Origin: an uncultured bacterium
Lineage (GTDB): Bacteria > Omnitrophota > Omnitrophia > Omnitrophales > JACQLI01
DNA length: 64,000 bases
Assembly (NCBI GenBank): GCA_964372875.1
Contig: CAYJTB010000001.1
Coordinates: 27,860-91,859, forward strand
Reading direction: 5' to 3'
The position numbers and the translations under genes are program-made. Each line of letters opens with the position of its first letter. Within the stretch, counting starts at the first letter, position 1. Shown piece after piece: positions 3,281 through 28,719 of the stretch. Below the pieces are notes generated by a model that was not told the origin of the DNA, ran no database searches, and was given only the letters and a program-made list of their open reading frames with translations.

Positions 3281-3394
3281 ATGAAAGTTAGAAGCTCAGT
3301 CAAAAAAATATGTGAGAAGTGCAGGGTCGTACGCCGCCGGGGGACCGTTTATATTATTTGCGAAAACCCCAAACACAAACAGCGGCAAGGATAA
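3281..3394 (+). CDS. rpmJ: 50S ribosomal protein L36
   Basis: 37-aa ORF not in the ORF track ([37 protein letters not shown]) with the C-x2-C-x12-C-x4-H zinc ribbon; canonical position between infA and rpsM. Confidence 0.9.
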
Positions 3395-3413
3395 GGAAGG
3401 ATAAAGAAAAACT

Positions 3414-3803: not shown

Positions 3804-3841
3804 GGTTTCGTTAACGAAAAGGAGAATCATTTTAGAAAGTT

Positions 3842-4842: not shown

Positions 4843-4886
4843 AGATAAAGCACCTAACATTGTTAGGATTCTAAGGAGGAAATTCA

Positions 4887-5879: not shown

Positions 5880-5888
5880 GAAAATTTC

Positions 5889-6485
5889 ATGTGGCATCAA
5901 AAAAGACGTAGACGATTAGGAGTCACCACTCCTCACCGCAAGGCAATGTTAAGAAATTTGGTCAGGGGTCTGGCCATGTACCGCCGGATCGAAACCACTT
6001 TGTCCCGCGCCAAGGAGACGTCGCGTTTAGCTGATAAGATGGTCACGATTGCCAAAGAAAACACGTTATCGGCCCGAAGACTCTTGATCCGCAAACTCGG
6101 ATCTCCCGTCGTCGCCAAGATTTTTATCGATGAAATCGCCCCGCGTCTTCAAGGGCGAAACGGCGGTTACACGCGCGTTTTAAAATTGGGTCTTCGCCGG
6201 GGTGACGGCGGCCAGACCGCTTTGGTGGAGTTTTCTGTTCCCATCGAGATCGCCACCAAAGAAGGAAAGCCCAAGAAAGAGAAAAAGTCAAAGCCCGGCA
6301 AAGAAATTGTCGAGAAAGAACAGGCTAAGCCGCGTCCTGAAAAAACGAAAGAAAAAGAAGAAATCAAGGAAGCGAAAAAGCCTGAGAAAAAAGAGACGAA
6401 GCCTGTTGACAAGGAAGAAACACAAAAAAGGGGAGGCTTTCTCTCCAAACTCCGGAAATTTCTGACCGGAGACGAACCTAAATAA
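5889..6485 (+). CDS. rplQ: 50S ribosomal protein L17 with ~75-aa Lys/Glu-rich C-terminal extension
   Basis: N-terminal ~120 aa typical L17 (HRKAMLRNL...TRVLKLG.RRGDG); tail KPKKEKKSKPGKE...KKETKPVDKEE is a low-complexity basic/acidic extension. Confidence 0.9.
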   Translation: MWHQKRRRRLGVTTPHRKAMLRNLVRGLAMYRRIETTLSRAKETSRLADKMVTIAKENTLSARRLLIRKLGSPVVAKIFIDEIAPRLQGRNGGYTRVLKLGLRRGDGGQTALVEFSVPIEIATKEGKPKKEKKSKPGKEIVEKEQAKPRPEKTKEKEEIKEAKKPEKKETKPVDKEETQKRGGFLSKLRKFLTGDEPK

Positions 6486-6521
6486 CCGAGGGCCTTGTTG
6501 ATCCCTCTTCTCGCAGAACCC

Positions 6522-7688
6522 ATGCTGTCCAAACGAATTAGCAAGGTCACGCCGTCTCTTACCCTTTCCATCACGGCTAAAGCCAAGGCCCTCAAGGCGC
6601 AAGGCATCAATGTCATCTCTTTAAGTGCCGGTGAACCTGATTTTGATACCCCTGAATTTATTAAAGAGGCCGCGATTGAAGCACTCAAAAAAGGCGTCAC
6701 AAAATATACGCCTGTGGAAGGCACGCTTGAACTTCGAAAAGCCATTGCCTCCAAACTGAAACGCGATCAGGGTCTTACGTACGGTCCGGACCAAATCGTG
6801 GTCTCAACCGGGGCTAAACACTCCATTTATAATCTCTTCCAAGTCCTCGTCGGTGAGGGTGACGAAGTTCTCATCCCATCGCCTTATTGGCTTAGTTACC
6901 CAGAGATGGTGACTTTGGCGGGCGGGCGCAGCGTTTTTATTGAGGCGGATGAAAAAAACGACTTCAAAATCACCGCCCAGCAGCTGGAAAAGGCCATCAC
7001 TCCTAAGACAAAAATCTTAGTCCTTAATTCACCGTCGAACCCCACGGGCGCGGTTTACCGGAAAAATGAATTGGAAGCCCTGATCCTCGTCCTTTTGAAA
7101 CATCCCCAGGTTTGGATTTTAAGCGACGAGATTTATGAAAAATTAATTTTTAATAACGAGGCCCATGTTTCCATTGCCTCGCTTCATCCCGAGATGGCGA
7201 AGCGGACATTGCTTGTGAATGGTCACAGCAAGGCCTATGCAATGACCGGGTGGAGAATGGGGTATGCCGCCTGCGCTAAAGAAGTTGCCGAGGCTGCGGG
7301 AACACTTCAAAGTCACTCCACTTCCAATGCTACTTCTTTCGCCCAGTCAGGGGCGGTCGTCGCTTTAGACAAAGGGGATGCAGAGGCAAAAAAAATGTGT
7401 CAGGTTTTTGAAAAAAGGCGGGACCTTTTTGTTTCGGAATTAAAAAAGATTCCCAAGCTCAAACCCTTTTCTCCACAAGGCGCTTTTTATCTTTTCGTAA
7501 ATATCGAAGCCACGGGCATGGATTCCATGGTTTTTTCGGAACGCCTTTTAGAAGAGGAGCGGGTGGCTGTCGTTCCCGGAAAAGTTTTCGGCAGTGACCG
7601 CCACATCCGTTTATCTTTTGCCTGCTCCGAAAAGGATATCTTGGAAGCGTCTTCCCGAATCCGTCAATGGCTTGAAAAAAAGGGCTGA
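6522..7688 (+). CDS. aspartate/aromatic aminotransferase (class I PLP aminotransferase)
   Basis: MLSKRISKVTPS...GEPDFDTP, NSPSNPTG, PLP lysine context SKAYAMTGWRMGY; ORF track starts at 6495 (alternative upstream Met), 6522 fits the family N-terminus better. Confidence 0.85.
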   Translation: MLSKRISKVTPSLTLSITAKAKALKAQGINVISLSAGEPDFDTPEFIKEAAIEALKKGVTKYTPVEGTLELRKAIASKLKRDQGLTYGPDQIVVSTGAKHSIYNLFQVLVGEGDEVLIPSPYWLSYPEMVTLAGGRSVFIEADEKNDFKITAQQLEKAITPKTKILVLNSPSNPTGAVYRKNELEALILVLLKHPQVWILSDEIYEKLIFNNEAHVSIASLHPEMAKRTLLVNGHSKAYAMTGWRMGYAACAKEVAEAAGTLQSHSTSNATSFAQSGAVVALDKGDAEAKKMCQVFEKRRDLFVSELKKIPKLKPFSPQGAFYLFVNIEATGMDSMVFSERLLEEERVAVVPGKVFGSDRHIRLSFACSEKDILEASSRIRQWLEKKG

Positions 7689-7721
7689 ATAGCCCCTTTC
7701 CCCGGTCCCTCATCCTTCACC

Positions 7722-7727
7722 TGTTAT
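7722..7727 (+). promoter_or_regulatory. TATAAT -10-like hexamer upstream of mfd-like gene
   Basis: ttcacctgTTATAATct 20 nt before the GTG start; no good -35. Confidence 0.25.
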
Positions 7728-7746
7728 AATCTTCTAGAGATTTACC

Positions 7747-9654
7747 GTGGGCGGGCTTGAAAGGCTTCATGTTGGCCAGACTGTTGAACGAAGCCATTTG
7801 GAGACCCTCCTCCAGAAACTTCGTTACAAGAGGAGAGATTTTGTGTCCGGACCCGGTGAATATGCCGACCGCGGCGCCACTCTCGATATCTATCCTGTAA
7901 GTTACCGCGCTCCCATTCGTCTTAATTTCGATCTCGATACCATCGTTTCGATCCACGATTTTTCTCCCGCCGAAGGCAAGAGCCTCACCCGCTTTGACGA
8001 GGTCCTTCTCGTCCCGCTCTCGGAGCCTTTTGAATCTTCAGCCACCCGGATGCGGCAGCGTTTTCAGGCCTTCGAAGCCCTTACGGAGACGGCCGATCTC
8101 GAGCCGGGCGATTATGTGGTCCATCTCCAGTACGGCATCGCGCGCTACCTCGGAACGAAGAAGATGACGCTGAAGAAAAAGGCGGTCCGCTGCGTTGCCT
8201 TGGAGTTTGCAGATCGTGAAATCCTTTATTTGGATTCCAAAGAACCCTTGGAGCGCTACATCGGGGTTGAAGGAAAAAAACCCCGGCTTACCCGGCTTCA
8301 CTCGAAAGAATGGGAAAAAGCCAAGGCCAAGACACGGCTTGCCGTAGAAAGCGTTGCGCGAGACCTCCTTTCTCTTCAAGCGAAGCGCGAACTCTCCCAC
8401 GGCCAAACCTTTCCTAAAGACAGTGAATGGCAGAGTAAATTCGAAGAAGAGTTTCCTTTTGAAGAAACGGAAGATCAAATCAAGGCCACGGAAGACATCA
8501 AAAAAGATATGGAAGGTGCCAAGCCGATGGATCGTCTTCTTTGCGGCGATGTGGGCTTCGGAAAAACAGAAGTTGCCATGCGCGCCGCCTTCAAGGCCGT
8601 GATGGCCGGAAAACAAGTGGCCTTTTTAGTCCCCACCACGGTGCTTGCCGAGCAGCACGCCCTTGTTTTTAAAGAACGCACCCGGACTTTTCCCATCAAA
8701 ATCGAAGTCCTCTCCCGTTTTCGTTCCCGAAAAAACCAAACCGAGATATTAAAGCAACTCTGGGAAGGAAAAGTGGACGTGATCATCGGCACGCACCGGC
8801 TTTTTTCCTCCGATGTCCAGTTTAAGGACCTAGGTCTTGTCATCATTGATGAAGAACAGCGTTTCGGCGTGGCCCACAAGGAAAAATTAAAAAAGTTAAG
8901 AGAATTGGTGGATGTGCTGACCTTAACGGCAACGCCCATTCCACGCACGCTTTATCTTTCGCTGATGGGGGCGAGGGACATGTCGGTCATTAATACCCCG
9001 CCTCGCACACGACTTCCCATTGAAACTTATGTGATGGAATATGATGATCACAAAATTGCAGAGGCCATCCGCCGGGAGCTGGCGCGGGGCGGCCAAGTGT
9101 ATTTTGTCCACAACCGCGTGGCTTCTCTCCCCAGAGTTTGCGAGCATTTAAAAACCATTCTGCCGAGTGTGCGGTTTGCCGGCGCGCACGGCCAGATGTT
9201 TGCCCACGAACTGGAAAAGGTCATGAAAAATTTTCTCGAGAAAAAAATTGATTGTCTCGTCACCACCAACATTATTGAATCAGGTCTTGATATCCCTAAT
9301 GCCAATACGATCATTGTGAACCGCGCTGACCGGTTTGGTCTTGCGGATCTTTATCAGCTGCGCGGACGGGTAGGGCGGTTTGTGGGTAAGCGGCAGGCTT
9401 ACGCGTATTTTATTATTCCTCGCCATTGGGTCATGACCTTGGATGCCCAAAAAAGATTAGAGGCAATTGAGCGGTTCACGGAACTTGGAGCAGGATTCAA
9501 AATCGCCATGAAAGACCTCGAAATTCGCGGGGCAGGTAATGTTCTGGGCCATGAACAAAGCGGATTTATCTATGCGGTGGGTTTTGACCTGTATTGCCGC
9601 ATGCTCCGCAAGGCCGTGGATGAACTCAAGAACTCTCCCAAAAAGAAGCCGTGA
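7747..9654 (+). CDS. mfd: Mfd-like transcription-repair coupling factor core (lacks N-terminal UvrA-interaction domains and C-terminal D7)
   Basis: [14 protein letters not shown] (D1b-like), RNAP-interaction motif [18 protein letters not shown]2 helicase motifs [42 protein letters not shown]-like hairpin; GTG start, in-frame TAG 12 nt upstream so no longer N-terminus possible; ends 10 aa after the last helicase block. Confidence 0.8.
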
Positions 9655-9657
9655 ACA

Positions 9658-10662
9658 TTGAAATCACAAGCATCTACTGGTTATAATGCTCCCATGTTGC
9701 GTCGTCTTGTCCTTACCCTAGGTTTTCTTATTTTAGGCACCCTTCCTGCCTGGGCCCAGAAGCAGCTTGTCGATCGGGTGGCCGCTGTTATCAACGACGA
9801 AGCCATTACCCAAAGCGAGCTAGAGATGTATCTGCGTCCCATTTATGAAGGCCTGAAACAGCAATTTGAAGGCGAAGAATTAATGAACCGCTTGAATGAG
9901 ACCCGGCTTAAACTTCTAAATCAAATGATCGAAGACCGTCTTGTTTTTCAAAAAGCCAAGGCCATGGAACTCAAAGCGGAGGACAGTGAGATTGAAGAAG
10001 AAGTGGATAGGCTCAAAAAGCGCTACCCTTCTGAGGAGGCCTTGGAAAAAGAAATGACGAGTCAGGGTTACAGCATGTCAGGGCTTCGGGAAAATATACG
10101 CCGGCAAATCCTCATTCGTAAACTTCAAGACATCGAAGTAAAGTCCCGCGTTATCGTCTCACCCCGCGAGATTGAAGAATATTACAAGTCGCATATCGGT
10201 GAATTCGAACAAGAATTAAGAATGAAGCTGCTTTCCATCACCATTCGTAAAAGTAAAGAGGCCGAGGAAAAAGGACTTGTGGATGAAGCGGCGAAGAAAA
10301 AAATCGAATCCGTTGAATTCCGGATCCGGAGTGGCGAAGACTTTGAGGATTTGGCCCGTCAATTCTCTGAAGATGCCCATGCAGCCGAGGGCGGCCAAGT
10401 CGGCTGGGTCCGTAAAGGCGAATTTCTTCCCTCCATCGAAAAAGCCCTTCACGAATTAAACCAAGGAGCGATTTCCCCAGTGCTGGAAACCGCGGCGGGT
10501 TACCATCTTTTTAGGGTGGAGGAAAAAGATCCCGGGAAGGTGAGTTCGTTGGAGGAAGTACGGGAGAAAATTCGTTCGGTCCTATTCCGCGAAAAGGCTG
10601 AAAAGCGTTTCAAGGAGTGGATGGAAGAATTAAAGACCCAAGCCTACATCTCGGTCCGGTGA
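9658..10662 (+). CDS. SurA-like periplasmic chaperone / parvulin-type peptidyl-prolyl isomerase
   Basis: Signal peptide (MLRRLVLTLGFLILGTLPAWAQ, probable start at 9694), SurA N-domain-like helical region, PpiC domain GGQVGWVRKGEF...GYHLFRVEEK; upstream of pdxA as in the surA-pdxA-rsmA cluster. Confidence 0.8.
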   Translation: MKSQASTGYNAPMLRRLVLTLGFLILGTLPAWAQKQLVDRVAAVINDEAITQSELEMYLRPIYEGLKQQFEGEELMNRLNETRLKLLNQMIEDRLVFQKAKAMELKAEDSEIEEEVDRLKKRYPSEEALEKEMTSQGYSMSGLRENIRRQILIRKLQDIEVKSRVIVSPREIEEYYKSHIGEFEQELRMKLLSITIRKSKEAEEKGLVDEAAKKKIESVEFRIRSGEDFEDLARQFSEDAHAAEGGQVGWVRKGEFLPSIEKALHELNQGAISPVLETAAGYHLFRVEEKDPGKVSSLEEVREKIRSVLFREKAEKRFKEWMEELKTQAYISVR

Positions 10663-10671
10663 CGCCTGGCC

Positions 10672-11721
10672 GTGTTGCAAAAACCCATCATTGCGATCAC
10701 ACAGGGCGATCCCGGCGGGGTCGGTCCCGAAATCATCGCAAAGTCCCTCCAGCATCCTGAAAATTTTTCCGGCGTTTTTCTTCTTCTGATCGGCACCGCC
10801 GTGGTTTTTGAATTTGTCCAAGAAGAATTTGGCATCAAACTCCCTTTAAATCCCATCCCGACCTTGGATCCCCAATTTTTAAGAGACGATTCGCTTAATT
10901 TTTTGGATGTGACGGAAGAAGCGGGATGGCTTTTAAAAAAACACTCCCTGCCCCAGCCCGATGAAAATAATCTTTTTGATATCGGCAAAGTGTCTGCGAC
11001 TAACGCAGCCATGGCCTTGGCGGCCTTGAAGGCCGGGGCGTACCAGGCAGCCACGGGTCTTGTCAATGGACTTGTCACAGCACCTGTGAATAAAGAAGCC
11101 ATTCGACTTCTCGAGCCCAAATTTGTGGGGCATACGGAATATCTGGCCAGAATCGCCCGCACCAAAGAATTCGCCATGATGTTTCTCAAAGCTAAGGACG
11201 AGAGTTCGGGACCTTTGCGGGTGACACTCGTGACCATTCATGTCCCTTTAAAAAAAGTTTCCCGGCTCGTCACTGAAGATGCCATTTTAGAAAAAATCCG
11301 TCTCACACATCAGTTCTTAAAAACCCGCCTTAAAATCGCCAAGCCCCGAATCGGTGTTTCGGCTTTAAATCCGCACGGTCATGAGACGGGGGACGAAGAG
11401 GAAAGAGTGATTTTTCCGGCCATCAAAAAGGCCCAAGAGGAAAATATCTTGGCAAAGGGTCCGGTTTCAGGCGACCGGATTTTTTACGATGCCTCCAAGG
11501 GAATTTATGATGCGGTTATCTCGATGTATCACGACCAGGCGCTGGCGCCCTTTAAATTGGCGGCCTTTGAAACAGGTGTGAATTTAACGCTGGGGCTTCC
11601 CTATGTGCGCACATCGCCTGACCACGGAACCGCCTTTGATATTGCCTACCAGGGAAATGCCAATCCCAAATCCATACAAGCGGCTCTCGCGTTGGCAATT
11701 CAGCTTGTGAAGGTTCGCTGA
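10672..11721 (+). CDS. pdxA: 4-hydroxythreonine-4-phosphate dehydrogenase PdxA
   Basis: ITQGDPGGVGPEI, HGHETGDEE, metal-binding His residues, SPDHGTAFDIA. Confidence 0.9.
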   Translation: MLQKPIIAITQGDPGGVGPEIIAKSLQHPENFSGVFLLLIGTAVVFEFVQEEFGIKLPLNPIPTLDPQFLRDDSLNFLDVTEEAGWLLKKHSLPQPDENNLFDIGKVSATNAAMALAALKAGAYQAATGLVNGLVTAPVNKEAIRLLEPKFVGHTEYLARIARTKEFAMMFLKAKDESSGPLRVTLVTIHVPLKKVSRLVTEDAILEKIRLTHQFLKTRLKIAKPRIGVSALNPHGHETGDEEERVIFPAIKKAQEENILAKGPVSGDRIFYDASKGIYDAVISMYHDQALAPFKLAAFETGVNLTLGLPYVRTSPDHGTAFDIAYQGNANPKSIQAALALAIQLVKVR

Positions 11722-11744
11722 TTTATTTAAATTAAAAGAACTCC

Positions 11745-11877
11745 GTCATCCTGAATGAAGCGACACGTCTTCGAGTGCGGCAAAGCCGCGAAGCCGTGAG
11801 GATCTGCCTTGAGATTCTTTCCGCCAAAGGCGGGCCCGCCTCTGGCGGGCGGCCATAGCCCTCGGCCTCAGAATGAC
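11745..11877. repeat. palindromic MITE-like element with imperfect terminal inverted repeats (GTCATCCTGA ... TCAGAATGAC), GC-rich internal hairpins
   Basis: Convergent intergenic region between pdxA(+) and GT2(-); TIRs related to the GTCATTGCGAGG family found in-frame in tsaD/larB/rsmA. Confidence 0.55.
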
Positions 11878-11884
11878 AGTTTGG

Positions 11885-13594
11885 TTAGTAAACCCGGGCG
11901 GCCCTTCTCTTTTTATTCTTTCCGCCTTTAGGCGCGACAAAAAATTCCATGTATTGGCCGAGGGCCAGGCGTGTCTGTGCATCGAGCGCAGGGACAGCAC
12001 CGAAGATGGTGGCAATGGCCGGGACAAGAAGCCATTGAAGAGCCAAGAAAATCTTTTCATAGAAGGGGACTTTCTTGGGGCGTTTGGGCAGGAGATAAAA
12101 ACTCAGGATAATCGAAATCACAAGGCTTGCGATAGCCATGTTGCAGATGACACCTGCCACCCGAGGCGCATTAAAGTGGGCGACGGTCAAATTGAATTCG
12201 TAATTGGGAACAAGGGCAGGCGCCCAGCTTAAGATCATCATGATGGGGGTCCAGGTGGCCCACGAGACATTCATCTCAAGAAGACGCAGCGCTCGTTTAA
12301 ATTTAAGCCAAAACGGGATCTCCTGATGCTTCAGCATGCCCCTCACGAGAATAGGAAAATTTTCGACCCCCCATGCCCAGCGTCTTTTTTGCCGGTAAAT
12401 GGATTGGCAGGTTTTCCACAAGTTCTCACCGATTGCCACATCCATCGACAACGTAACATAAAGAGGCTCCACCCGGTAATCGCCGTTAAAAATAAGAAAG
12501 GCCTTCCAGAAAATGGCAGAATCATCGGAAACCAGATCCACCGGCCAGTAACCTACTTCGACAAGCGCCTGAAAGCTCATGCTATGGCTTGAAAAGGTAA
12601 CCAAGTGGTCCGGGTCAGTGACTTCGATCAGCTGAAAATAAGAAGACCCTGTTTCTAACACTTGGGCAAAAGAGGGGGCCTCCCAGAGATTGTTATGATA
12701 AACGGGGATGGGCTGAAAACTGGTCCGGGTCCGTTTGGGATGAATCAAATAATTATAGGTGAGGCAAGAAAAATATTCGGTACTTACGACCGTATCCGAG
12801 TCAAAACAGGAAACCACAATGTGATCGAGCGGAGTCCCGCGCGCCTCGAAAAATTTCTTGGCCCAACGCGCGGCATACGTGGCGTTGGCGCCTTTGACCG
12901 CCGCCTCTCCTGGGAGCCCATCGGGATGAATACAGTTTTCAAAGTGGAGGAAATCTTTCGCGTATTCTTCTTTTAAGACCTCCGCAATACGGACCGCCTC
13001 TTTTCCTCCGCGTTCCTCAATCGCAAGGACCACCACGATGTGGTTTTTGGGATAATTCGTTTGTCTTAAAGCCTCAAGCGTGGGTTCTAAGACACTCAGA
13101 CCTTCCCAGAGATAGGGAATAATCACGAGATGATAGATATCTTTTGGATTGGGAAAATGGATTTTATCATGTTGGAGGCGTTTCAAAGTTGCGAGATGCC
13201 TTTTTTCTGAAAAATGAATTTTCCAACCAAGCTTGGGATCGCGAATCCTTTTTTGTGTCCTCGTTATGGCGCTCTCTAAATGGAGAAAATCTTGCAGCCG
13301 GTCAAACCATTGAGCGGTTCGTTCAATTTCAAGAAGCACATAAGAGAGCACCAAAAAAATGGTGAAATAAACCAGCCGGAAAAGCCAGTAGAGATCGAAA
13401 AGAATAACCGTCACAACCCCGGCGACCGGGGCCAAGATACATACGAGTGTAAAGGAAATAAGAAGACTCCAGCTAAGCACGGCGGGGAGGATTTCCAGGC
13501 CACGCTCCAACCGCCCTTCGTTTTTACCCAGATTGTGGCGGGAATATTCAAATTTCATGGAGAATCCTTGGAGGCCGCGGAGGCGGAAACCCAA
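11885..13594 (-). CDS. membrane-bound processive family-2 glycosyltransferase (cellulose/glucan synthase-like)
   Basis: N-terminal TM helices, D...DxD (CFDSDT)...SDD and Q(R/Q)xRW motif (YRQKRRWAWG), C-terminal TM bundle. Confidence 0.8.
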   Translation of the reverse strand: MGFRLRGLQGFSMKFEYSRHNLGKNEGRLERGLEILPAVLSWSLLISFTLVCILAPVAGVVTVILFDLYWLFRLVYFTIFLVLSYVLLEIERTAQWFDRLQDFLHLESAITRTQKRIRDPKLGWKIHFSEKRHLATLKRLQHDKIHFPNPKDIYHLVIIPYLWEGLSVLEPTLEALRQTNYPKNHIVVVLAIEERGGKEAVRIAEVLKEEYAKDFLHFENCIHPDGLPGEAAVKGANATYAARWAKKFFEARGTPLDHIVVSCFDSDTVVSTEYFSCLTYNYLIHPKRTRTSFQPIPVYHNNLWEAPSFAQVLETGSSYFQLIEVTDPDHLVTFSSHSMSFQALVEVGYWPVDLVSDDSAIFWKAFLIFNGDYRVEPLYVTLSMDVAIGENLWKTCQSIYRQKRRWAWGVENFPILVRGMLKHQEIPFWLKFKRALRLLEMNVSWATWTPIMMILSWAPALVPNYEFNLTVAHFNAPRVAGVICNMAIASLVISIILSFYLLPKRPKKVPFYEKIFLALQWLLVPAIATIFGAVPALDAQTRLALGQYMEFFVAPKGGKNKKRRAARVY

Positions 13595-15036
13595 TCATCT
13601 ACCAACCGGGGAAGAATATTTGCCGGCTCGAAAAGCTGGATCCGTGACAATCGGCGGGTAAGGGGATCCGCAAAATAAACAAACCCCCGTCTTTCATCCA
13701 AAGCAATTTGAGGGACTCTTTTTGAAATTTGGAAGAGAGGAACCGCTTGGCCATTGCCTTCAAAATCCAACACCTTTACCCAGCCGCCTTCTACAAATAA
13801 AAGATAATTGTCATTGTAAAACCAAGTGAGATTAGAAATTTTTTGCTCTCCCTGATAAATTTTTCGGGGGGAAACGCCGGTTTGGAAAAATTCTTTTTCC
13901 GGTTCACGCTCAAAATCGACCAGCCAAAGTTCAGAATCTTTCCGGTAGACAGCCCGCCTGTTGAAAACGGCCGTGACCACTTCCTCCACTCTCTTGTCCA
14001 GGTAATAGGGAAGCCGGTTGGAAAAAAGCTTGCCTTGATCCGACAAGAAAAGAGCAAACGCCTCATGAAGCGGAGTGAAGATAAAAGGCCGGGAGAGAAA
14101 ATAGAAGGAATAGCGTTCCCCCTCGTCAGGACCGAAAATAAGGTGCGCCTTGGCGGCCGTGCCCAATAACGTTTTCCGGATTTCCCCTTTTTCAGTTAAT
14201 TCGAATAAACGTCTTCGGGCATCCATCACAAAAAGTTTGCGTCTGTCCGTGGTATAGCCCCGAATCCCGCCCTGCACATCAAAGAGAGGAAACCGTTCTT
14301 CAAAATCCATTTTTTTGAGGGTATCGCCTTGAAGATAAAAGAGTGCATTTTTTTGAGAGGGGCCCCAACGAAACTTATCGAAGGGTTCCTGGAGACTTCC
14401 AGCAAGCGGAGTCAGTTCCATGGGACTCAGGAATTTCACAAGAAAAGGACGAATGCCTTCTTTTTGTTTCATGAAGGCCACGGCCTTTTCGCCTAAGGGA
14501 TGCATCAGGACTTCTCCCACTGGGAAATCATATTCGCCTGAAAAATTGGGGAAAATAGGCTCGAGTTGATTTCGCTCAGGTTCAAAAAGATAGAGCCCGG
14601 AGACGTGATCGCCTTGAAGGACTACAAGTTTTCTTGTCTGTGCAGCGTGCCAGATTTTTGTGATGGGAAAATCCGTGAGCTTCTCCGAATCAAACTGAGT
14701 GGGGAAGAGCAAAATATTTTCAAAAGAAAGGACCTTATCGGCTTTGACCTCCACTTGTTTTTGCCAAGGATGCATTCCCGGCAGGCTCAAGTGAAGGTTA
14801 TAAAAACCGGATTTAAGATTACGAATGACGACAGGGGTGGTGTCTTTCAAGACCCGGTGATTGAGCTCAACCTGGGCTTGGGAGGGGTGTGAATTAAGGC
14901 TGATCAGGCCGGTGAGGAGAAGCTTGGAATGGCTGGGGCTGAAAATATAGCCCAAGGCATAGAGCACGGTCAAAGGTGCTATCACAAGGTAGGCTACGGT
15001 AAAAACCAAGAAGATTGCTTTACGTAAAATTCCCAT
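13555..15036 (-). CDS. hypothetical N-terminally membrane-anchored protein, upstream partner of the GT2 synthase (40-nt overlap)
   Basis: 493 aa; single N-terminal TM (FLVFTVAYLVIAPLTVLYALGYIF) then large extracytoplasmic domain; operon with GT2; no recognisable family by eye. Confidence 0.5.
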   Translation of the reverse strand: MGILRKAIFLVFTVAYLVIAPLTVLYALGYIFSPSHSKLLLTGLISLNSHPSQAQVELNHRVLKDTTPVVIRNLKSGFYNLHLSLPGMHPWQKQVEVKADKVLSFENILLFPTQFDSEKLTDFPITKIWHAAQTRKLVVLQGDHVSGLYLFEPERNQLEPIFPNFSGEYDFPVGEVLMHPLGEKAVAFMKQKEGIRPFLVKFLSPMELTPLAGSLQEPFDKFRWGPSQKNALFYLQGDTLKKMDFEERFPLFDVQGGIRGYTTDRRKLFVMDARRRLFELTEKGEIRKTLLGTAAKAHLIFGPDEGERYSFYFLSRPFIFTPLHEAFALFLSDQGKLFSNRLPYYLDKRVEEVVTAVFNRRAVYRKDSELWLVDFEREPEKEFFQTGVSPRKIYQGEQKISNLTWFYNDNYLLFVEGGWVKVLDFEGNGQAVPLFQISKRVPQIALDERRGFVYFADPLTRRLSRIQLFEPANILPRLVDDWVSASAASKDSP

Positions 15037-15315: not shown

Positions 15316-18300
15316 ATGACCCTACGCGCGAAAAATTTTTATCTACGCACTGTCGCAGCTTTCACCGCAATCATTTTTTGCTGGAATAGCCTTGCTTGGC
15401 CGCTTCCCGAGGTTGCGGTTCCCCAGGCCGGCAAAACTTTCGATCTCATTCCAAAAGAACTCGGAACCGTCGATGAATACGAACTGCCGGACGCTTCACA
15501 TTCCGCACCCTTTGTCATACATATTCAAGATCTCCACGCAGCACCCGAAGCTCAAGAAAAAATCCTGGACATTCTTAAATTTTTACATTCAAAAAAGAAA
15601 CTTCTCGTAGCGGTCGAAGGAGCCGCCGGAACGCTTCATCCTGAGTATTTAGATTTCTTTCCGCAATACCCGCGTGTCACAAACGCACTCGTTCAAGATT
15701 TGGTAAGTGAGAGCATGCTTACAGGGCCGGCGTTATTCGCATGGGAGAGGTATGAGAGTAAGCCGTCATTGCACCCGTCATTGCGAGGACGTAAGTCCGA
15801 AGCAATCTCAAATCCTAGATTGCTTCGTCGGGCCTTTGGCCCTCCTCACAATGACAATAGCGTCCAATTCATAGGCGTCGAGACGCCGCGTCTTTATCGC
15901 GAAAACCTTAAAGCCTATCGCGATTTTTTCCAGGATGAAGAAAAAAATCAGCAGGATTTGAAATCTTTCCAAACCTCATTGGAATCGGCCCAAACGAAGA
16001 TTTTCAATCCTGATTTGAGGAAATTTGTCCAAGAAGTCCAGAGACGTAAAGATGGAAAGTTTCAATCGGGAAAGGCCTCGCCCGATCTTGCGGCTTACAT
16101 TCGCTTTCTCGCGGATTCAAGCCGAGATCATTTGGGAGTTGATCTAAGAGATAAATTCGAACAGATCCGTTTTCCCAATCTAACCCGCATTCTTTTCTTG
16201 ATGGAATTCGAATCAAAAATCACTGCTCACCAGCGCCGGGTTCTGCATTCTGAAATTGAATCCAAAAAACTTTTTGATGAAATCACACTTCTCGAAACAA
16301 GACTGCGGCAAATACTGGTTAAAAAGCCGGAAGAAACAAAACTTCTTGAGATCCTTGATGATTTCAAGTTGCTTGAGAAGTTATTCCATTTGGAACTGAC
16401 TCGCGAGGAATATTACCAAGTCGTCAACAGGGTTTTGGAAATCAATCCGTCGAATTTACATCAGCGTTTGGCAACCATTGCTGAGATTGCTTCGACCTCG
16501 TCTGAAATGTTGTCTCGCAATGACGCCGATTACGAAACTGCTCTGCGTTTTTACCGCTTAGCCATTCGCAGAGACAAAGCCCTTCTTGAAAATGCCTTGC
16601 GAGAGGCAGCTAAAACGGAGAACTCGTCTCAAGAAAAACCACTCATCGTTCTTGTTACCGGCGGTTTTCACACTTCAGGGGTGAGCGAGCTTCTCAAAGA
16701 AAAGAAAATTCCTTACGCCGTCGTCACGCCTGCCTTAGCAAAAACCAAAGCCAATCAAGACCAATATCACAAACTGATGTCCGGCAAAATGTTCGCCAAA
16801 GAAGCCTCAAGCGCTTCGCCCAAGAATAACAATCTGGTGTGGGCGCAGATTCTTACAGCAAGAGATCGGTACCCGAGCCTCAATTCCGACGAGGATCAGC
16901 AAAAAATATTTTCCCACGCGACTGAAAAGTCCGGCGAGTATTTTCGAAAATTCTATCCCCAAATCTCCGAACCCAAACTGCAAGAACTTTTATCTCGCCC
17001 CGCCGGATTCTTTTCGCAAATCTCCCGTTCCGAATTGCAAAGTAGGAGCCAGATTACGAATTCGGCCATCGATGGCCGAATTGGCGGGAAAAGGGTACTG
17101 CCTTCACGTTTTCCGCGCTCGGAAGTGCGGGCGGTAGAACAGCGATTAGAAGTCAGTGGTCAGAAGACAGAAGGCTGGAGTTCAAAGATAGGAAAAATTA
17201 TCAGGAATGGCAGCGATTTTGGACTATCGAGGGTTTTCCAGCGTAGTCAGGCGAAGAATTATCGAATTCCAAGCCGCTTAGAAAAATCTCGAGGTGAAAG
17301 AATAGAAATCTCTTTAAAGGTTTTCATCGATAGCAGATCGTGGTCTCCTGTGACAATGATCGTTGCTTTAGCTGAAAGAGCGCATTCCAGCACGGCATCA
17401 TCGTCCGGGTCACGGCAGGCCTTTACCTTTGTTTTAGGTTTGACTATCAAAGCTTTCATATGGATCAATGAAATCATTTCTTCAAGCATTTCAGGCGTGA
17501 TCCATTTCTTGAGTTTAGGTTTTTCCAGTGAGCGAAGAAAGTCTTCCAGTAAGGCCGGAGATAAAGCCGCAATGAACTTGTCTTCTTCCAGGGATTCCAG
17601 AATCGAACGGCAAACGCCCGGAAAGGCGAGTCCGCTCACCAGCACATTCACATCAAGAACGACCCGACGCATACCGTTCCTGCCGGGCTTGCTTGACCAG
17701 ATTCAGAAGCTCTTTTCGGCTGAGAGGGTGTTTCTTTCGGCTTTTATCAACTTTGCGGGTCAGAGAACGGAAGCGTTCTCCCCAGGTCTTATGTTCAAGA
17801 CGACGGATCAGGGTAATGCGGTCACGGGATTTCAATTGATTGATCATGCGCTCAATTTGTTGAATGTCTACTTCCACGGCAATCTTAGGCATAGGATTTT
17901 ATCCTCCTCTTCGAATCAGTATAATTTATCGGCCTTGGCGGATCAAAATCAAAACATTTCTTCCGTTAAGCCTTCTAAGCAAAGTTCGACAGAACCGAGC
18001 CGAAGGGCCGCTTCCGGCCCCGAGAGCCGTCAGTCTCCGATCCTAAGCGTCGATAGACCCGGAGGGGCCCGTGGGGAGGTGCGGGCAAAAGAACAGAGGT
18101 CAGAAGTCAGAGAGCAGAGGATAGAGGTCATAAGTCAGAGATCAGAAGGAAAAATTACTTCGAGTGGCGGCGATTTTGGTAGCGTTCGATCAGGTACATC
18201 ACGCCCCAGGCAAGAAATATCAAAACCAAAACAAGAGACACGGTTATCACGTTTTATTTACCCCTTTTCCGAATCTCTTGGGCAAGCCATCCAAGAAATA

Positions 18301-27300: not shown

Positions 27301-28719
27301 ATAAAAAATCATTTTCTGACCGCGCTTCATCATTTCATTTGGGAACACAGCGACTTTGAAGATGCGAAGAATTTAGCCAGAGAACTCGGTAACTTGAGCC
27401 TAATCAGTTCTTTGTTGGGTGAGCCCCTCAGTAAAAGACAGGCCGCTTTTTATAAGCGCGCACTTTTGAGCTCTGACCGCACGCAGCAGAAGATCGCGCT
27501 TGGCTTCTTCGAGACTTTCCCTGATCTTGAAAAAATGGACTGGAAAGAGGAAGTCGTTGGTAAACTTAAAGAAATCGTAATGGATGAATCCGAAGATTCT
27601 GAATTTAGAAAATATGCCTTTGAAGCGTTGACAAACAATATTCTTCTTATAGAGCCAGCCTTTTTGGCGCCTTATTTTAAAGAGCCGCGCAGCCAACGGT
27701 TTCGAATCATTTCTTCGGATAAAAAAGGCGCTCGGATTTTATTTTCGGTTCTTCAGAAGAAATTTGGGTCGCCTTTAAAGGACCCGCCCCTTTTTAAAAA
27801 AAGTTCCGAGTCCATCATTTTATCAGGAGAATTTACGACAGGTCTGAGAAATGCTGCCATGTTGATCCGATTTGTAAGGCAGGCCTACGGCCGGGAGATA
27901 TCCTTTGATGAGTCCCGCGGCTTGCTTAAAGAGATGAAAAAGAAACAAGACAGATCCCGGCGTTCCGAAATACGGAGTGAAAGCTTGGATTCGACGTGGG
28001 AGTTGAGGGAGGATGCGAACAAAGGAAAGCTTGCGGAACTTGGAAAACAATTTGCGCCGATGATTGAGAGTCTTTGGAAACGCTCCGAGGTCAGGCACAG
28101 GCTTGCGACGGACGGATTTTTGAATCTTTCAAAGCTGATTGAAATTCCCAAAGCCGAAGCGGCTGAACCTGCGATTGTAGCTGCGCTTTTGATCCGTGCA
28201 GAACAATCCCAAACCGGAACGCCGGCTTTGGACAAACATTTGCAAGTGTGGCAGTCGCGCATGGGAATCAGTTCGGTTGCTAAAGAAAATGAAGTCGTAA
28301 TCCTCTTAGAAGGTGCGGCGTTTAAACTCGGACTCTTGGCTGCGATCGACGGAATTAGCCCGGCAGCTCCGAAGATCGGCGTTGTGGCGCCCAAGGCTTA
28401 CCATTCTTTAGTGGAAGAAGTCAGAAGCGGTCTTAGAACCGGGCAAGAACTGATCGAAGGGGAGAAGCTTCCCGAAATTTTAAATCAAATTGCTCAGATG
28501 AAACAGAAGCCAAGCCGCTTAACGATTTGGGCTTCGAAGGAAGACTCGTTCTTAACAGCAGCGTTCATCAAACGTTTTCTTAAAGATCCAAACCTGAATG
28601 TAGAAGTAAAGACCGTGACGCAGCGCGATCTTGACCGCGCCAACGCGTCTCACCCCGGCTTTGCGGAACGTATCAAGAACTTCCTCGCCGCCGTCAAATC
28701 CCTCAGCATTTCCGCTTAA
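15316..28719 (+). CDS. giant secreted multi-domain protein (4467 aa): signal peptide, helical N-region, 7-blade WD40-like beta-propeller, three ~70-aa WN..HP repeats, Pol-beta-like nucleotidyltransferase-like motif, HEAT/ARM-like helical C-terminus; contains recurrent RSEVR motifs and in-frame GC-rich hairpin repeats
   Basis: Single uninterrupted 13.4-kb ORF; N-terminus MTLRAKNFYLRTVAAFTAIIFCWNSLAWP; WD40-like blades ~18.55-19.5 kb; GSLGVLGSAVRDKSDLNLMVV at ~25.49 kb; RBS aggaaag upstream. Confidence 0.8.
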   Translation: MTLRAKNFYLRTVAAFTAIIFCWNSLAWPLPEVAVPQAGKTFDLIPKELGTVDEYELPDASHSAPFVIHIQDLHAAPEAQEKILDILKFLHSKKKLLVAVEGAAGTLHPEYLDFFPQYPRVTNALVQDLVSESMLTGPALFAWERYESKPSLHPSLRGRKSEAISNPRLLRRAFGPPHNDNSVQFIGVETPRLYRENLKAYRDFFQDEEKNQQDLKSFQTSLESAQTKIFNPDLRKFVQEVQRRKDGKFQSGKASPDLAAYIRFLADSSRDHLGVDLRDKFEQIRFPNLTRILFLMEFESKITAHQRRVLHSEIESKKLFDEITLLETRLRQILVKKPEETKLLEILDDFKLLEKLFHLELTREEYYQVVNRVLEINPSNLHQRLATIAEIASTSSEMLSRNDADYETALRFYRLAIRRDKALLENALREAAKTENSSQEKPLIVLVTGGFHTSGVSELLKEKKIPYAVVTPALAKTKANQDQYHKLMSGKMFAKEASSASPKNNNLVWAQILTARDRYPSLNSDEDQQKIFSHATEKSGEYFRKFYPQISEPKLQELLSRPAGFFSQISRSELQSRSQITNSAIDGRIGGKRVLPSRFPRSEVRAVEQRLEVSGQKTEGWSSKIGKIIRNGSDFGLSRVFQRSQAKNYRIPSRLEKSRGERIEISLKVFIDSRSWSPVTMIVALAERAHSSTASSSGSRQAFTFVLGLTIKAFIWINEIISSSISGVIHFLSLGFSSERRKSSSKAGDKAAMNLSSSRDSRIERQTPGKASPLTSTFTSRTTRRIPFLPGLLDQIQKLFSAERVFLSAFINFAGQRTEAFSPGLMFKTTDQGNAVTGFQLIDHALNLLNVYFHGNLRHRILSSSSNQYNLSALADQNQNISSVKPSKQSSTEPSRRAASGPESRQSPILSVDRPGGARGEVRAKEQRSEVREQRIEVISQRSEGKITSSGGDFGSVRSGTSRPRQEISKPKQETRLSRFIYPFSESLGQAIQEIRIMMATIIERTALAFNEVFQMFSLTTRAANTRLTALMIPSANKFRLLDGKRVFISMLQAPQPNTGLILSQILFLEYEISRRSEVREYISDWTVSTLETKQPVLAAAFSTDGKILAAGARNNVHLTNGDLRKWSVEFRAHRNEIAKLISFQRGNRNFFATASRIGSISLWNSNGGLIRRLEQLNPEDFQPVLGLSVSKNGDWLAATDMDVMKIYDLTGMSSPKTIPITDQSRNHFVQFSPDGTSIASTYYGEIRIEDIKTGKLRANLHHEASLKKSMDTSALAFSKGDDVAAASTDGKIRIWRWKGERQPQVLDFLSPAREASHLIFSPNGKRLAASTADQIEIWKLNGKVWRHEETIYPHLDAVTEILFSPDAKRFMAAGIWHGSGRVRIWSKETPARAEVRTDGIPTTWFRIFNRLDNLNREVWKQKDLDIIDLTNQLEKKLISLFGSQLLYGIWTWNTSVREVRFGLRSGPLSFELTANPHQEIPEREIKRGYTVTMNAMLTSAAESQHAKKWGDSEPEERGETLLEIPIAEIDRSQPVIYFGSFYFDTDKEKKETIIKQEILFLPGEERNYQIYIWHNNALEKTTLEKEGGRTYAVWRTPEAEPSLSFQYVALHDAQGKDLGEISRLILKAGNSETYRNNLQFLYGPIWRDETSSFSHGSRTSVKPSVFEDLISAAPGKRIAALLGLAIEYQYVPEGQVFSRMLLTELEKLEGLPYGRIAALREIAEMSPEEAHERFKDPYDQPSAIPAVMTLVASLAPRLLERMKNWDQEFYEELKGVLQKPDLKTLFEEGEVKFYEADHLWAASDNRSFFPGVVAFSRSKDRQIIVPIYFGNEPKDEDGKVWFKILDATSLGIENSNAATYQVYDHMLGEFYKTLHSGEKLYREGWSIGIPVVPGKLDRAGFIQKGRHVQFLEMRRTQSLTTATRIGLPENLVKTQGILTDLLREMSKLEIYFFISKTGATDRRMVPVDNVYEFFSSYAGKKGEHWNEIVSEPLQLTVSSPGFKRQTLRHALRMMQEALQLTYSFPGTLKGNDPHLSFYHDKLIEETQLLKTSDQTGKWAHVEFEIASSHFEMPDHWDQPAENSLRQRIQALREALEIPFVLMLKAPSGAKDPYHIEPVGNLHQRLPYFVLKDDFLKNPHDPRFPYFSKGAQLSFGLEAPMDSARLEQVRNILVASLEGRMSAATLKRAIEVTMHQWQREDSFFSESRSEARRVPRTLAVHPVRLAPGTPLYPDRSGPGVAVQSHWNSARSEVRTEKSERLTRSNAGELLKPRRYLKNKIYGIGRITAVEGKFGGKDPQGSVEVAFLNKHGFEETKEFSTWSLFQLPEQNPEEAFFSVTRQEIEDFKNQKRQGQAAYKEEIDKKRIAQREGRQWMEAQSPTFSLYDSPFSARAGRPLAADYRKLMQGIQDRAQGEYHLGSASIVERKILFEMLGTRLIPKTNQSETTLRINLGRRKKEFAEKLKTILDETGGLSARAVSEAEEKIMSPKDKSRALSSEWLKFRDPVTGKFATEKDIKRWIQNAIPIVERILEYEVKLLKLEKQIQIHPRPLARSEVRAAESSPTKKVAFFNLRTADDSSIVLPQRMSYLPVEQRLPDYSAWRIRVGRESGNLHAFLRDVLGPRWHWNVKGETKAYFLYKSLPKKFKQFIGKRKPPTGFDMEALGLLVVNRSDIFYIPMEETVNESVVTVLDKNDRDAINEFISHHAMIQTVPQNIRIFPPVRYESVKFGLGEDPVSSPKPGSIEVVYHPRLMVNDLGKADKEIIFETSFDLTQLRPRKKITAELEGRFYQELKSRLRNTWQIRIGNRTVEMPRAKDLPAKVQDVEEILLPGNNRKTASLHFNDAVSFYLDGILMRSNVPVPKDIHAWIFWKTRIRFNDQEISVETTEGNNVLTYRTDETGEHLRVNGEPTDNSVLQNMIRQMGSAFSILAFQMARDPEQTDYLRESGKETIDDEFDQWLGRSEVREEGQPAQNGNGHAIQKKQRGRGFRTKEEALQALAERQAKGLSSDPKSLQRHLAEGGNPTLLTFIYRWNQKHPEEPIEMKLLPTRTHKYESKGEIIEALEKRRLEKGESANYRMQLRLHIEEGGDRTLYQAVLRWNHDHPEDLINLPLDPHVAHGQLGKYQTKQDGLNTLSERKKQGLGNSTSDLRQTKSDGGDWPLLVFIRHWNKKHPKDRIALENADQNFNRLSPVAVWHSQTQDFKTTDQKRTEWWRALQEEADHEAGKRLVESFIPSVNEIAQRLSGGRDSHYEADLIQNGNMIVLETIYPERKEDQWNPSRGVSMTEFVETRLKKEMRHRTLQEIRSSGRFSIDEPYRFSKGREKEWQVPSYDAQPQEVRINNLADERDKQSGLPVILFEEKHQIAREIGKWLIKKGFLKQVKQEGIQNLAVSMIGSLGVLGSAVRDKSDLNLMVVTDANESQAEALAEKLAQWIGGRYHEPQDSEPIRISVGKEGDYEQAIADGNGFISLLQKHKVGTDPIKGIASVEVIGIPDEDNSFSEDSLTRQKTRAAFHLAFQDPRLAEQAINGILVLENAKGAAERLAQKLPSDQENLFGYYEKFLAKQAANLRKLQESSIDSKARAEVHPNPTDSGTPQSSPDQARAEVRSSLPEQRAEKKLETRKLEIGAGISGLSGRVETSNGRVFSGSDRLPIKSTRSPQKSEWQGQPSFSLPPLRSLPQKSSPNKSISRVLLERQAAISGRVLGKALLPELLLIGPKSHAETTLPASPSGPLSGIYFSQNKIYSNINSELSDFSRSDGSTSSPSVLSKAEGRVERAEVHPNPTDSGTPPHSRPTGVSTEVSLAAPPGAPPSSPERARAEVRASVEEIIRKQMLSGDLKAFEKNFESYDREKAFELLNSISKIAKEISERIRKGEEELMVAANNGQKMQEIIDAAKILENFPNDKQIHGVHLSAIINLQEIFNLTPKALPRYRNLLEAIVKHASKKEQPHQAAAEIIESFEGEQHADSQQDQFQRNEALEFLTLDLDEKVFKETVIKNHFLTALHHFIWEHSDFEDAKNLARELGNLSLISSLLGEPLSKRQAAFYKRALLSSDRTQQKIALGFFETFPDLEKMDWKEEVVGKLKEIVMDESEDSEFRKYAFEALTNNILLIEPAFLAPYFKEPRSQRFRIISSDKKGARILFSVLQKKFGSPLKDPPLFKKSSESIILSGEFTTGLRNAAMLIRFVRQAYGREISFDESRGLLKEMKKKQDRSRRSEIRSESLDSTWELREDANKGKLAELGKQFAPMIESLWKRSEVRHRLATDGFLNLSKLIEIPKAEAAEPAIVAALLIRAEQSQTGTPALDKHLQVWQSRMGISSVAKENEVVILLEGAAFKLGLLAAIDGISPAAPKIGVVAPKAYHSLVEEVRSGLRTGQELIEGEKLPEILNQIAQMKQKPSRLTIWASKEDSFLTAAFIKRFLKDPNLNVEVKTVTQRDLDRANASHPGFAERIKNFLAAVKSLSISA
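17259..17672 (-). CDS. PIN-domain toxin (TIGR00305-like), encoded antisense inside the giant ORF
   Basis: MRRVVLDVNVLVSGL...CRDPDDDAVLECALSAKATIIVTGDHDLL: conserved acidic residues of the PIN fold. Confidence 0.75.
   Translation of the reverse strand: MRRVVLDVNVLVSGLAFPGVCRSILESLEEDKFIAALSPALLEDFLRSLEKPKLKKWITPEMLEEMISLIHMKALIVKPKTKVKACRDPDDDAVLECALSAKATIIVTGDHDLLSMKTFKEISILSPRDFSKRLGIR
17653..17892 (-). CDS. putative antitoxin partner of the nested PIN toxin
   Basis: 79-aa basic/helical protein overlapping the PIN start by 20 nt (classic TA arrangement); no recognisable fold by eye. Confidence 0.5.
   Translation of the reverse strand: MPKIAVEVDIQQIERMINQLKSRDRITLIRRLEHKTWGERFRSLTRKVDKSRKKHPLSRKELLNLVKQARQERYASGRS
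18258..18461 (-). CDS. small (67 aa) 2-TM membrane protein, antisense inside giant ORF; paralog of 26324..26533
   Basis: MKTLFPSKRRNLF...VSLVLAALVV...SLKAKAVLSIIVAIMILISW; AT-rich promoter-like region immediately upstream on the minus strand (TTGACT at 18505-18510). Confidence 0.5.
   Translation of the reverse strand: MKTLFPSKRRNLFADGIMRAVSLVLAALVVSENIWKTSLKAKAVLSIIVAIMILISWMACPRDSEKG
21972..22113 (+). repeat. in-frame GC-rich hairpin cluster inside giant ORF (paralogous to 26062-26130 and 26630-26790)
   Basis: gtgcacccg-loop-cgggtactcc flanks shared with the 26-kb copies; stems cccggtgc/gcaccggg, acccggacc/ggtccgggt, cattggaac...gttccaatg; ends in RSEVR codons. Confidence 0.5.
26062..26130 (+). 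repeat. in-frame structured repeat unit (40-nt perfect repeat + second hairpin) inside giant ORF
   Basis: gccgaggtgcacccgaatccgaccgattcgggtactcctc identical at 26062-26101 and 26644-26683; hairpin cccgaatc/gattcggg; second hairpin cctcgcc-cgatca-ggcgagg. Confidence 0.6.
26324..26533 (-). CDS. small (69 aa) 2-TM membrane protein, antisense inside giant ORF; paralog of 18258..18461
   Basis: GTG start; MKSIFLTTARRDWL...VILVLLAGVLGG...SLKWRLVVLGGLVICFYLGLIF; shares MK(S/T)(I/L)F, K.SLK...VL...V.I pattern with the other copy; AT-rich region with TTGATA upstream on minus strand. Confidence 0.5.
   Translation of the reverse strand: MKSIFLTTARRDWLAKLFQHVILVLLAGVLGGELFLKLSLKWRLVVLGGLVICFYLGLIFAASSSKEED
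26630..26790 (+). repeat. in-frame structured repeat unit, second copy, with four hairpins
   Basis: Same 40-nt repeat; additional stems actcacgcc/ggcgtgagt, cctggcggc/gccgccagg, cctcgcc-tgaacg-ggcgagg (loop differs from copy 1 while stem is kept). Confidence 0.6.

Follow-up and report, generated by a model that had tools for sequence, protein, structure and literature searches.

A predicted toxin-antitoxin operon nested antisense in the stop-free frame of a giant modular gene from an uncultured Omnitrophota bacterium

A 64,000-nucleotide stretch of a contig from an uncultured Omnitrophota bacterium (GenBank assembly GCA_964372875.1, contig CAYJTB010000001.1, positions 27,860 to 91,859; this whole stretch is called the window here) carries a giant plus-strand open reading frame (ORF), and, on the opposite strand and entirely inside that ORF, a complete toxin-antitoxin (TA) gene pair. 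An earlier reading of the letters without database searches (the sequence-only reading) had noticed that the giant ORF stays open straight through the TA pair, and this was borne out, since the single frame from 15316 to 28719 encodes 4,467 aa with 0 stops and is the sole giant ORF in the window. The plus-strand ORF is a genuine modular gene. Its reality is backed by coding-type codon usage, a module with the WD40 fold, homologues of its N-terminal module (M1), and one frame that is common to all forward modules. The codon-usage log-likelihood of the giant frame is positive throughout, except at ~17000-18540 and ~26060-26770, where minus-strand frames score best.

The TA pair occupies the first of these two regions. 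The sequence-only reading had described a 137-aa minus-strand ORF with the conserved acidic residues of a PIN domain, preceded by a 79-aa partner that overlaps it by 20 nt. In hidden Markov model (HMM) searches the longer protein passed the curated cut-offs of both PF13470 (PIN_3; E=8e-18, 65.8 bits with a cut-off of 27) and TIGR00305 ('putative TA toxin, PIN family'; E=4.7e-24, 84.9 bits with a cut-off of 29.15). It has 256 homologues, the 18 close ones being 62-84% identical and 135-145 aa long, and residues D7, E43, D88, D91 and D110 are invariant in 19 sequences. The coordinates of the partner (17653..17892) were likewise confirmed, and an upstream antitoxin gene of 78-86 aa that overlaps the PIN gene by 17-23 nt is kept in every related locus. 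When compared with the VapB15 model (NF047401), the antitoxin scored 28.4 bits where the cut-off is 80, so that this is a resemblance and not membership of the family. A promoter-like site and a Shine-Dalgarno sequence lie upstream of the antitoxin gene, and both the -10 region of the promoter-like site (GCCGATAAATTATACTGAT) and the Shine-Dalgarno sequence are kept across five loci. Together, these features identify the pair as a predicted autonomous type II operon of the vapBC type, with a PIN_3/TIGR00305 toxin and a small upstream antitoxin.

Substitutions between the antitoxin genes of different loci number 209, 119 and 398 at the first, second and third positions of the antitoxin's own codons, a distribution that indicates purifying selection on the minus frame. 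Counted in the giant frame, the same changes lie for the most part at codon position 1, and so they also indicate that no constrained protein is encoded in that frame there. Accordingly, protein-level constraint was seen on the TA frame only, and the data failed a dual-coding test, which looks for purifying selection on both frames. The sequence-only reading had proposed that selection be compared on the two strands, with constraint on the plus-strand frame only counting against it, and the comparison came out in favor of the nested genes. Its claim that two genes lie fully nested antisense in a third also held.

The nested genes form part of a wider unit. The interval given at first for the feature, 17259-17892, is exact for the two ORFs, but the cassette around them (C1) is wider, extending from 17116 to 18069, and the giant ORF holds two further cassettes, C2 and C3. 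The nesting at 17259-17892 is thus present as described but is no one-off, with three antisense cassettes in this gene and the same TA family inside at least eight other long ORFs. Coordinates of the cassettes, their contents and the forward modules are collected in Table 1.

Table 1. Features of the giant ORF and its antisense cassettes (positions in the window)
Feature	Position	Strand	Remarks
Giant modular ORF	15316..28719	+	4,467 aa, stop-free single frame; coding-type codon usage
Module M1	15316..17115	+	N-terminal transmembrane (TM) helix and EreA/ChaN/Tiki/TraB-like domain
Junction motif RSEVR (CGCTCGGAAGTGCGG)	17116..17130	+	Left edge of C1
Cassette C1	17116..18069		954 bp, 318 giant-frame codons; antisense TA operon; motif copies at 17116 and 18070
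~90-nt element common to C1 and C2	17136..17222 (C1 copy)		Repeat families D1, D4, D9
PIN-domain toxin gene	17259..17672	-	137 aa; PF13470, TIGR00305; conserved acidic residues
Antitoxin gene	17653..17892	-	79 aa; 20-nt overlap with PIN gene; weak VapB15 match
TA expression signals	17903..17946	-	Promoter-like TTGATC-17-TATACT at 17946-17918; GAGGAGG Shine-Dalgarno at 17909-17903
Cassette C2	18070..18540		471 bp, motif-bounded; plus frame not coding-like
Tandem junction motifs RGEVR, RSEVR	18070..18111	+	C1/C2 boundary
C2 cargo ORF	18258..18461	-	67 aa; two predicted TM helices
Module M2, WD40 beta-propeller	18541..19491	+	Pfam WD40-type matches at aa 1087-1375; RSEVR and RAEVR at exact edges
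Forward modules M3-M6	19492..26058	+	Motifs at 19492, 21937 (RSEAR variant), 22063, 22972 and 24196
Cassette C3	~26059..26781		Hairpin-array flanks 26062-26135 and 26644-26780
C3 cargo ORF	26324..26533	-	69 aa; two predicted TM helices; promoter-like site 26569-26541
Forward modules M7-M9	26767..28716	+	Motifs at 26767, 27961 and 28081

The peptide motif R[SA]EVR stands between the modules of the giant ORF, and its copies coincide exactly with the two edges of the WD40 module. In the wider form R[SAG]E[VI]R, the motif is present in 12 copies in the giant frame and in one copy in all other frames of the window, where an arithmetic estimate from composition gives an expectation of ~0.05 copies. 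The first two codons of the motif vary synonymously (CGC/CGT/CGA/AGG at the first, TCG/TCA/TCC/TCT/GCC at the second), and the nonamer GARGTGCGG is commoner in motif copies than codon usage predicts; for these reasons the motif appears to be constrained as a peptide, with its copies also sharing DNA. Downstream of their minus-strand genes, C1 and C2 share the ~90-nt element, whose minus strand is rich in C and T and which is read in the giant frame as degenerate motif repeats. No significant fold was detected in this element, nor at the ends of C1 and C2 (z -0.8 to -1.9). The flanks of C3 consist of ~75-nt direct repeats of in-frame hairpins (families D5 and D7), with fold z of -2.9 and -6.9.

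The cargo ORF of C2 is weakly similar to that of C3 (E=5e-4) and to ORFs in two of the related loci, L005 and L088. Antisense cargo ORFs of this kind, 67-73 aa long with two hydrophobic helices, recur at 18258-18461 and 26324-26533 on the minus strand of the window, at 1005-1220 in L005 and at 8-229 in L088; they are 16-31% identical to one another, and no Pfam family was matched by them.

Several other accounts of the motif, the cassettes and the open frame were tried and rejected. Group II intron boundaries were considered at the motif, which contains GTGCG; variable codons in the motif and ill-fitting 3' ends speak against them. Internal restart of translation from a Shine-Dalgarno sequence and GTG codon at GGAGGTG does not agree with the many copies that read GAAGTN or GTC/GTT/GTA, and no start codon follows. 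The segments are not invertible in arrangement, the flanking motifs being direct and not inverted repeats, and attC-like folding of the C1 and C2 ends was discarded on the fold results given above. An alternative genetic code was dismissed as well, since none of the three standard stop codons interrupts the ORF and the neighboring genes are all normal.

The giant-frame translation over the cassette contains 17% Ser and 9.1% Arg, compared with 7.3% and 7.1% in the rest of the protein, in agreement with the Ser/Arg-rich read-through that had been described over the TA pair. To evaluate how readily such a frame would stay open, the probability that it contains no stop was estimated by synonymous resampling or shuffling. 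For C1, the values were 0.11 over the PIN gene, 0.10 over the antitoxin gene, and 0.047 and 0.075 over the flanks, with a product of ~4e-5; C2 and C3 gave ~1e-3 and ~4e-6, and the joint probability for the three cassettes is ~2e-13. The giant frame is the codon-aligned antisense of the antitoxin frame, and therefore only TTA, CTA and TCA codons in the antitoxin make stops in it. Over the PIN gene, the two frames share their third codon positions; these three codons are therefore harmless there, and only Tyr, His and Gln codons in certain contexts can give giant-frame stops. Among the Leu and Ser codons counted in eight loci, the stop-making ones account for 0/90 in the antitoxin genes and 48/187 in the adjacent PIN genes (Fisher p=9e-10). 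The relevant antisense frame was stop-free in 8/8 PIN genes, whose GC content ranges from 33% to 54%, while the same antisense frame in 47 distant PIN genes of similar GC had a mean of 3.1 stops and was free of them in 4%. Consistent with this, Tyr, His and Gln together make up 1.6% of the nested PIN family and 4.7% of 101 distant PIN_3 proteins (p=4e-9, with kinship ignored); because the compared loci are related, the p-values overstate independence, although synonymous sites are near saturation.

Over the cassette, the giant frame is thus constrained only against stop codons. The sequence-only reading had suggested a TA insertion tolerated by a disordered linker of the giant protein, and this stands insofar as the cassette is read as an unconstrained, Ser/Arg-rich spacer in the giant frame. 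It does not stand as simple tolerance, since antitoxin codon choice and PIN composition show that stops are selected against, nor as an unstructured place of insertion, since the linker is a defined junction with R[SA]EVR at both cassette ends.

At least eight other distinct long ORFs, from metagenome-assembled genomes (MAGs) labelled Omnitrophota or Elusimicrobiota, also enclose a pair of this TA family, and the orientation was antisense in 9/9 loci examined. Nesting flanked by R[SA]E[VI]R was found in three of these settings: L005/L007 from an Omnitrophota MAG, where the frame is open over the whole locus (1,141 codons), L008 from an Omnitrophica MAG, where an ORF that begins with an M1 homologue has more than 1,627 open codons, and L087/L088, where the frame is open throughout and a 73-aa ORF with two TM helices is additional antisense cargo. 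In L088, a second TA pair (876-1450), antisense to the same open frame, adjoins the PIN cassette, and consists of an AF2212-like antitoxin (E=3e-5) and a PemK/MazF toxin (E=4e-9).

The giant-frame translation of C1, which by the above results is not a constrained protein, was also used as a query against 1.84 billion representative proteins. Nine predicted proteins from Omnitrophota- and Elusimicrobiota-labelled MAGs contain the segment, including ones of 4,053, 1,543 and 1,482 aa. On the opposite strand of their contigs there are intact PIN genes, together with an upstream antitoxin ORF, which in L172 has no detectable similarity to the antitoxin of the window; the ORFs of L170, L171 and L172 are open for 1,489-4,053 codons. 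R[SA]EVR is absent from the lineages found by this search. Instead, the Omnitrophota-type ORFs are enriched 10- to 18-fold in (A)ASSP[AVIL], in which Ser is encoded by all six codons. Flanks of the ASSP[AV] type on both sides of the TA cassette (AASSPV and AASSPA) were found in L171 only; in L170 there is an SSP motif at the antitoxin side and an S-rich stretch at the other, and in the predicted protein P0127 a complete receiver domain (aa 3841-3921) lies between two SSP motifs. The L172 ORF contains neither R[SA]EVR nor ASSP[AV], and neither junction motif was found in P0130 and P0134 from an Elusimicrobiota-labelled MAG; the motif is also absent from the giant-gene loci L167 and L168/L169. 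Since R[SA]EVR is replaced or missing elsewhere, the junction motif belongs to the modular organization of the host ORF and is lineage-specific, with the nested TA pair as the constant element. No orthologue long enough to span a junction was found, and only M1 and the TA-antisense segment are common to the related loci.

Two of the contigs found in this way have unusual layouts. L170 (GCA_043815445.1, JBDRIY010000110.1; 1-12160) is a 12,160-nt contig of 36% GC with 0 stops in one frame (4,053 codons) and 128-410 stops in the others; it ends in a 58-nt terminal direct repeat, leaving a unit of 12,102 nt, or 3 x 4,034. Two readings fit, a circular element whose ORF never ends, or a larger giant gene of which a tandem repeat has been collapsed. 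In L171 (1-14467), the stretches 2-8788, 8792-9997 and 10001-14467 are open in one frame with single stops between them, and the third starts as a MatE transporter and continues through segments with ASSP[AV] at their edges, one of which holds the antisense TA pair.

Module M1, the N-terminal 600 aa of the giant protein, has homologues, some of which are stand-alone genes adjoining other giant genes, and is 24-25% identical to the N-terminus of the long ORF in L008. A predicted AlphaFold2 model of moderate quality matches the fold of the EreA/ChaN/Tiki/TraB superfamily, and residues H74 and E101 are invariant in 6/6 sequences; PF04187 is matched weakly, below its cut-off, by one M1 homologue. 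In L168/L169 (GCA_964593065.1), M1-type domains occur twice in a row, in a 406-aa gene and at the N-terminus of a 1,256-aa gene, and both genes lie directly upstream of a 9,654-aa gene, so that M1 seems to be generally associated with giant-gene clusters. Within M1 of the window, a palindromic insert resembling a miniature inverted-repeat transposable element (15777-15856, plus strand; GTCATTGCGAGG...CGAAGCAATCT...AGATTGCTTCG...CACAATGAC) adds ~30 residues in frame. It is opposite a 30-aa gap in the L008 homologue, falls where the predicted local distance difference test score is below 50 (aa 151-180), and is present in a single copy in the window.

We favor, with a probability of roughly 0.6, a reading of the TA pair as an autonomous addiction module, adapted to read-through and residing in a spacer of a giant protein that is modular and possibly processed. 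Ribosomes on the giant mRNA would pass through the cassette as a ~318-aa Ser/Arg-rich spacer, so that the downstream modules would still be made. The TA family would have adapted to the host frame, the antitoxin by avoiding TTA, CTA and TCA and the PIN protein by being poor in Tyr, His and Gln. The junction motifs might be linkers or sites of processing through which the spacer is either removed or disregarded, and one could imagine the Tiki/TraB-like M1 as the protease. The TA pair may persist as an addiction module, and might also protect the repeat-rich giant gene against deletion.

Several observations weigh against this reading. What points to translation through the cassette is solely the absence of stops; cleavage at the motif and an M1 protease are putative, with one weak match (E=0.0098) as the Pfam support for M1; and the cost of more than 700 spacer residues is without explanation. 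No empty-site orthologue was found among the related loci, so that the cassette may be an insertion or an ancient resident. GTGCGG is present in ~15/25 motif copies, compared with ~7.5% expected from codon usage. Furthermore, in L001/L002/L091, whose PIN proteins are ~70% identical to that of the window, the TA pair is outside any giant ORF, yet the antisense frame is open over the exact cassette, and the pair is flanked on both sides by an exact 16-nt direct repeat, CCGCATCTCGGAGCGG, which is the complement of an RSEMR-encoding sequence. Since the TA pair is flanked by repeats of motif DNA in these loci, the motif also behaves as a cassette end at the DNA level. The two RSEMR repeats of L001 are 772 nt apart and out of phase. 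Either these loci are decayed remnants of the nested state, or the motif DNA is itself a cassette end or insertion target.

If the latter were generally true, the giant gene would be an in-frame cassette array, with the motif acting primarily as a DNA site for recombination or insertion, like the attC and attI sites of integrons, at which modules and antisense cassettes are shuffled, and R[SA]EVR would be merely what the site happens to encode. Besides the repeats in L001/L002/L091, the over-representation of GARGTGCGG, the hairpin-bearing direct repeats around C3, the presence of the same TA family between non-homologous modules in different genomes, and a cargo of TA systems and small membrane proteins like that of chromosomal integrons are consistent with such an array. 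We nevertheless consider it unlikely, given that the first two motif codons are free to vary synonymously and that the junction in other lineages, ASSP[AV]/SSP[IV], encodes Ser by both TCN and AGY codons, which points to a peptide-level motif. In addition, no recombinase was present among the window ORFs scanned (268-15036 and 29398-32475, the parts to which the scan was limited), the C1 and C2 ends lack a significant fold, and recombination alone does not account for a frame without stops. Alternatively, and in line with the second suggestion of the sequence-only reading, a regulatory antisense arrangement might itself be the selected function, with convergent transcription tuning the giant gene or the TA pair, for example through activation of the toxin when giant-gene transcription is high, or attenuation of the downstream modules. 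The conserved TA promoter does oppose transcription of the giant gene, and antisense orientation is uniform in the loci examined, but antisense may be the sole orientation that permits a complete, stop-free gene pair in the host frame, and regulation does not need an open host frame; we regard this explanation as decidedly improbable.

We give almost no credence to artefact or chance, by which one set of ORFs would merely shadow the other, be it the giant frame over minus-strand genes or the TA ORFs over the giant gene. It is true that a wobble-aligned antisense frame is the least prone to stops, and that, across the PIN gene alone, an antisense frame is open in 14 of 78 distant PIN loci. However, the low joint probability of three open cassettes, the presence of the WD40 module and of M1 homology in the plus frame, the TIGR00305 match of the PIN protein, the purifying selection seen in the antitoxin substitutions, the codon-choice contrast between antitoxin and PIN genes, and the recurrence of the arrangement across independent assemblies all argue against chance on either strand.

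A bolder extension of the favored reading, which we put forward tentatively and consider rather doubtful, is that such ORFs are 'gene trains', in which many unrelated proteins that fold independently (WD40, receiver domain, MatE, Tiki-like hydrolase) share one frame with stop-free antisense cassettes of TA systems and small membrane proteins, and in which the peptides at the junctions, R[SA]EVR or ASSP[AV] according to lineage, act as processing sites in the style of viral polyproteins, with nested TA pairs that have co-evolved to be transparent to host ribosomes. In one MAG, such a train could even be closed on itself, as a 12.1-kb unit with 0 stop codons.

The TA pair resembles chromosomal type II VapBC-like operons of the PIN_3/TIGR00305 kind in the acidic residues of the PIN domain, the small overlapping upstream antitoxin, the coupled frames, and a promoter and Shine-Dalgarno sequence of its own. 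It differs from them in that the operon lies wholly inside and antisense to another ORF, that its codon and amino-acid usage is apparently shaped to keep that ORF open, and that its antitoxin falls below the cut-off of every curated family. In the superintegrons of Vibrio, promoter-bearing TA modules are interspersed with small cassettes that have a repeated site at their edges, and a role in stabilizing the array against deletion has been proposed for these modules. The cargo of TA and small-protein genes is a likeness to such sedentary chromosomal integrons, whereas the boundaries here are 15-nt in-frame direct motifs and the whole array is one ORF. The characters of attC were not found, as there are no imperfect palindromes at the C1 and C2 ends and no GTTRRRY core in the motif, with the C3 flanks alone being hairpin-rich, and no intI was seen in the limited ORF scan described above. 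Rickettsia palindromic elements and similar repeats are foreign DNA that is tolerated in frame in protein genes, adding residues without a stop. Palindromes in frame were found here in the M1 insert at 15777-15856 and in the hairpin arrays at 26062-26135 and 26644-26780, and the likeness is limited to these, since the TA insert is not a short non-coding palindrome but a two-gene operon with expression signals on the opposite strand. Finally, antisense nested genes of enterobacteria share with the present case a complete protein gene antisense within a longer ORF, but in enterobacteria the long mother gene is conserved and the nested gene is a young orphan, whereas here the nested genes are conserved and the host frame is an unconstrained spacer kept free of stops.

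Giant genes of Omnitrophota have been described as very long, membrane-anchored ORFs with multiple modules, for which post-translational cleavage was proposed (10.1101/2023.11.21.568195; 10.64898/2026.06.07.730766). The present gene is likewise a long, membrane-anchored, multi-module ORF from the same candidate phylum, but falls outside the giant proteins of 10.1101/2023.11.21.568195, which have tens of thousands of residues and reported domain sets, since it encodes 4,467 aa with WD40 as the only domain by Pfam. The two reports say nothing of antisense genes, TA cargo or junction motifs within such ORFs, and in the literature searched, RSEVR in the sense of a junction and nested genes in Omnitrophota giant genes are unmentioned. 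We found no description there of a TA pair nested in a giant gene and recurring in related uncultured bacteria.

If the favored reading is true, complete functional operons can reside for long periods in translated bacterial genes, recasting their choice of codons and amino acids so as to remain unseen by the host frame. The codon-choice contrast (0/90 vs 48/187) would then be a simple, portable test of translated overlap that could be used genome-wide. Annotations of giant genes in Omnitrophota and related phyla may conceal nested genes and spacers, and this would affect domain analyses, structure predictions and the size records of the 'largest proteins'. The junction motifs would also offer concrete candidate cleavage points for the question of whether giant bacterial proteins are cut into smaller products.

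The neighborhood of the giant ORF is core chromosome, with secY-adk-map, rpsD-rpoA-rplQ, mfd, surA and pdxA upstream and ksgA and gatA downstream, and the other genes of the window are of ordinary length. WD40 was the only domain finding by Pfam on the giant ORF, PADLOC reported nothing besides the WD40 module, Rfam found no family over 15-29 kb, and neither the PIN protein nor the giant protein was on record in exact look-ups. Module M3 (aa 1398-2206) had no homologue at E<=1e-5 among 5.8 billion proteins, and no homologues were detectable for the remaining forward modules besides M1 and WD40. The M3 stretch of 809 aa (19507-21933) has good coding statistics despite the absence of homologues. 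M6 (24196-26058) contains three copies of a ~70-aa unit (…GGNPTLLTFIYRWNQKHPEEPI…), with a weak Arm-DNA-bind_4 match as its sole annotation. Between the RSEAR and RSEVR motifs, the segment 21937-22077 has a non-coding look and contains an GAGGCACGCCGTGTGCCTC hairpin, and may be another small in-frame insertion.

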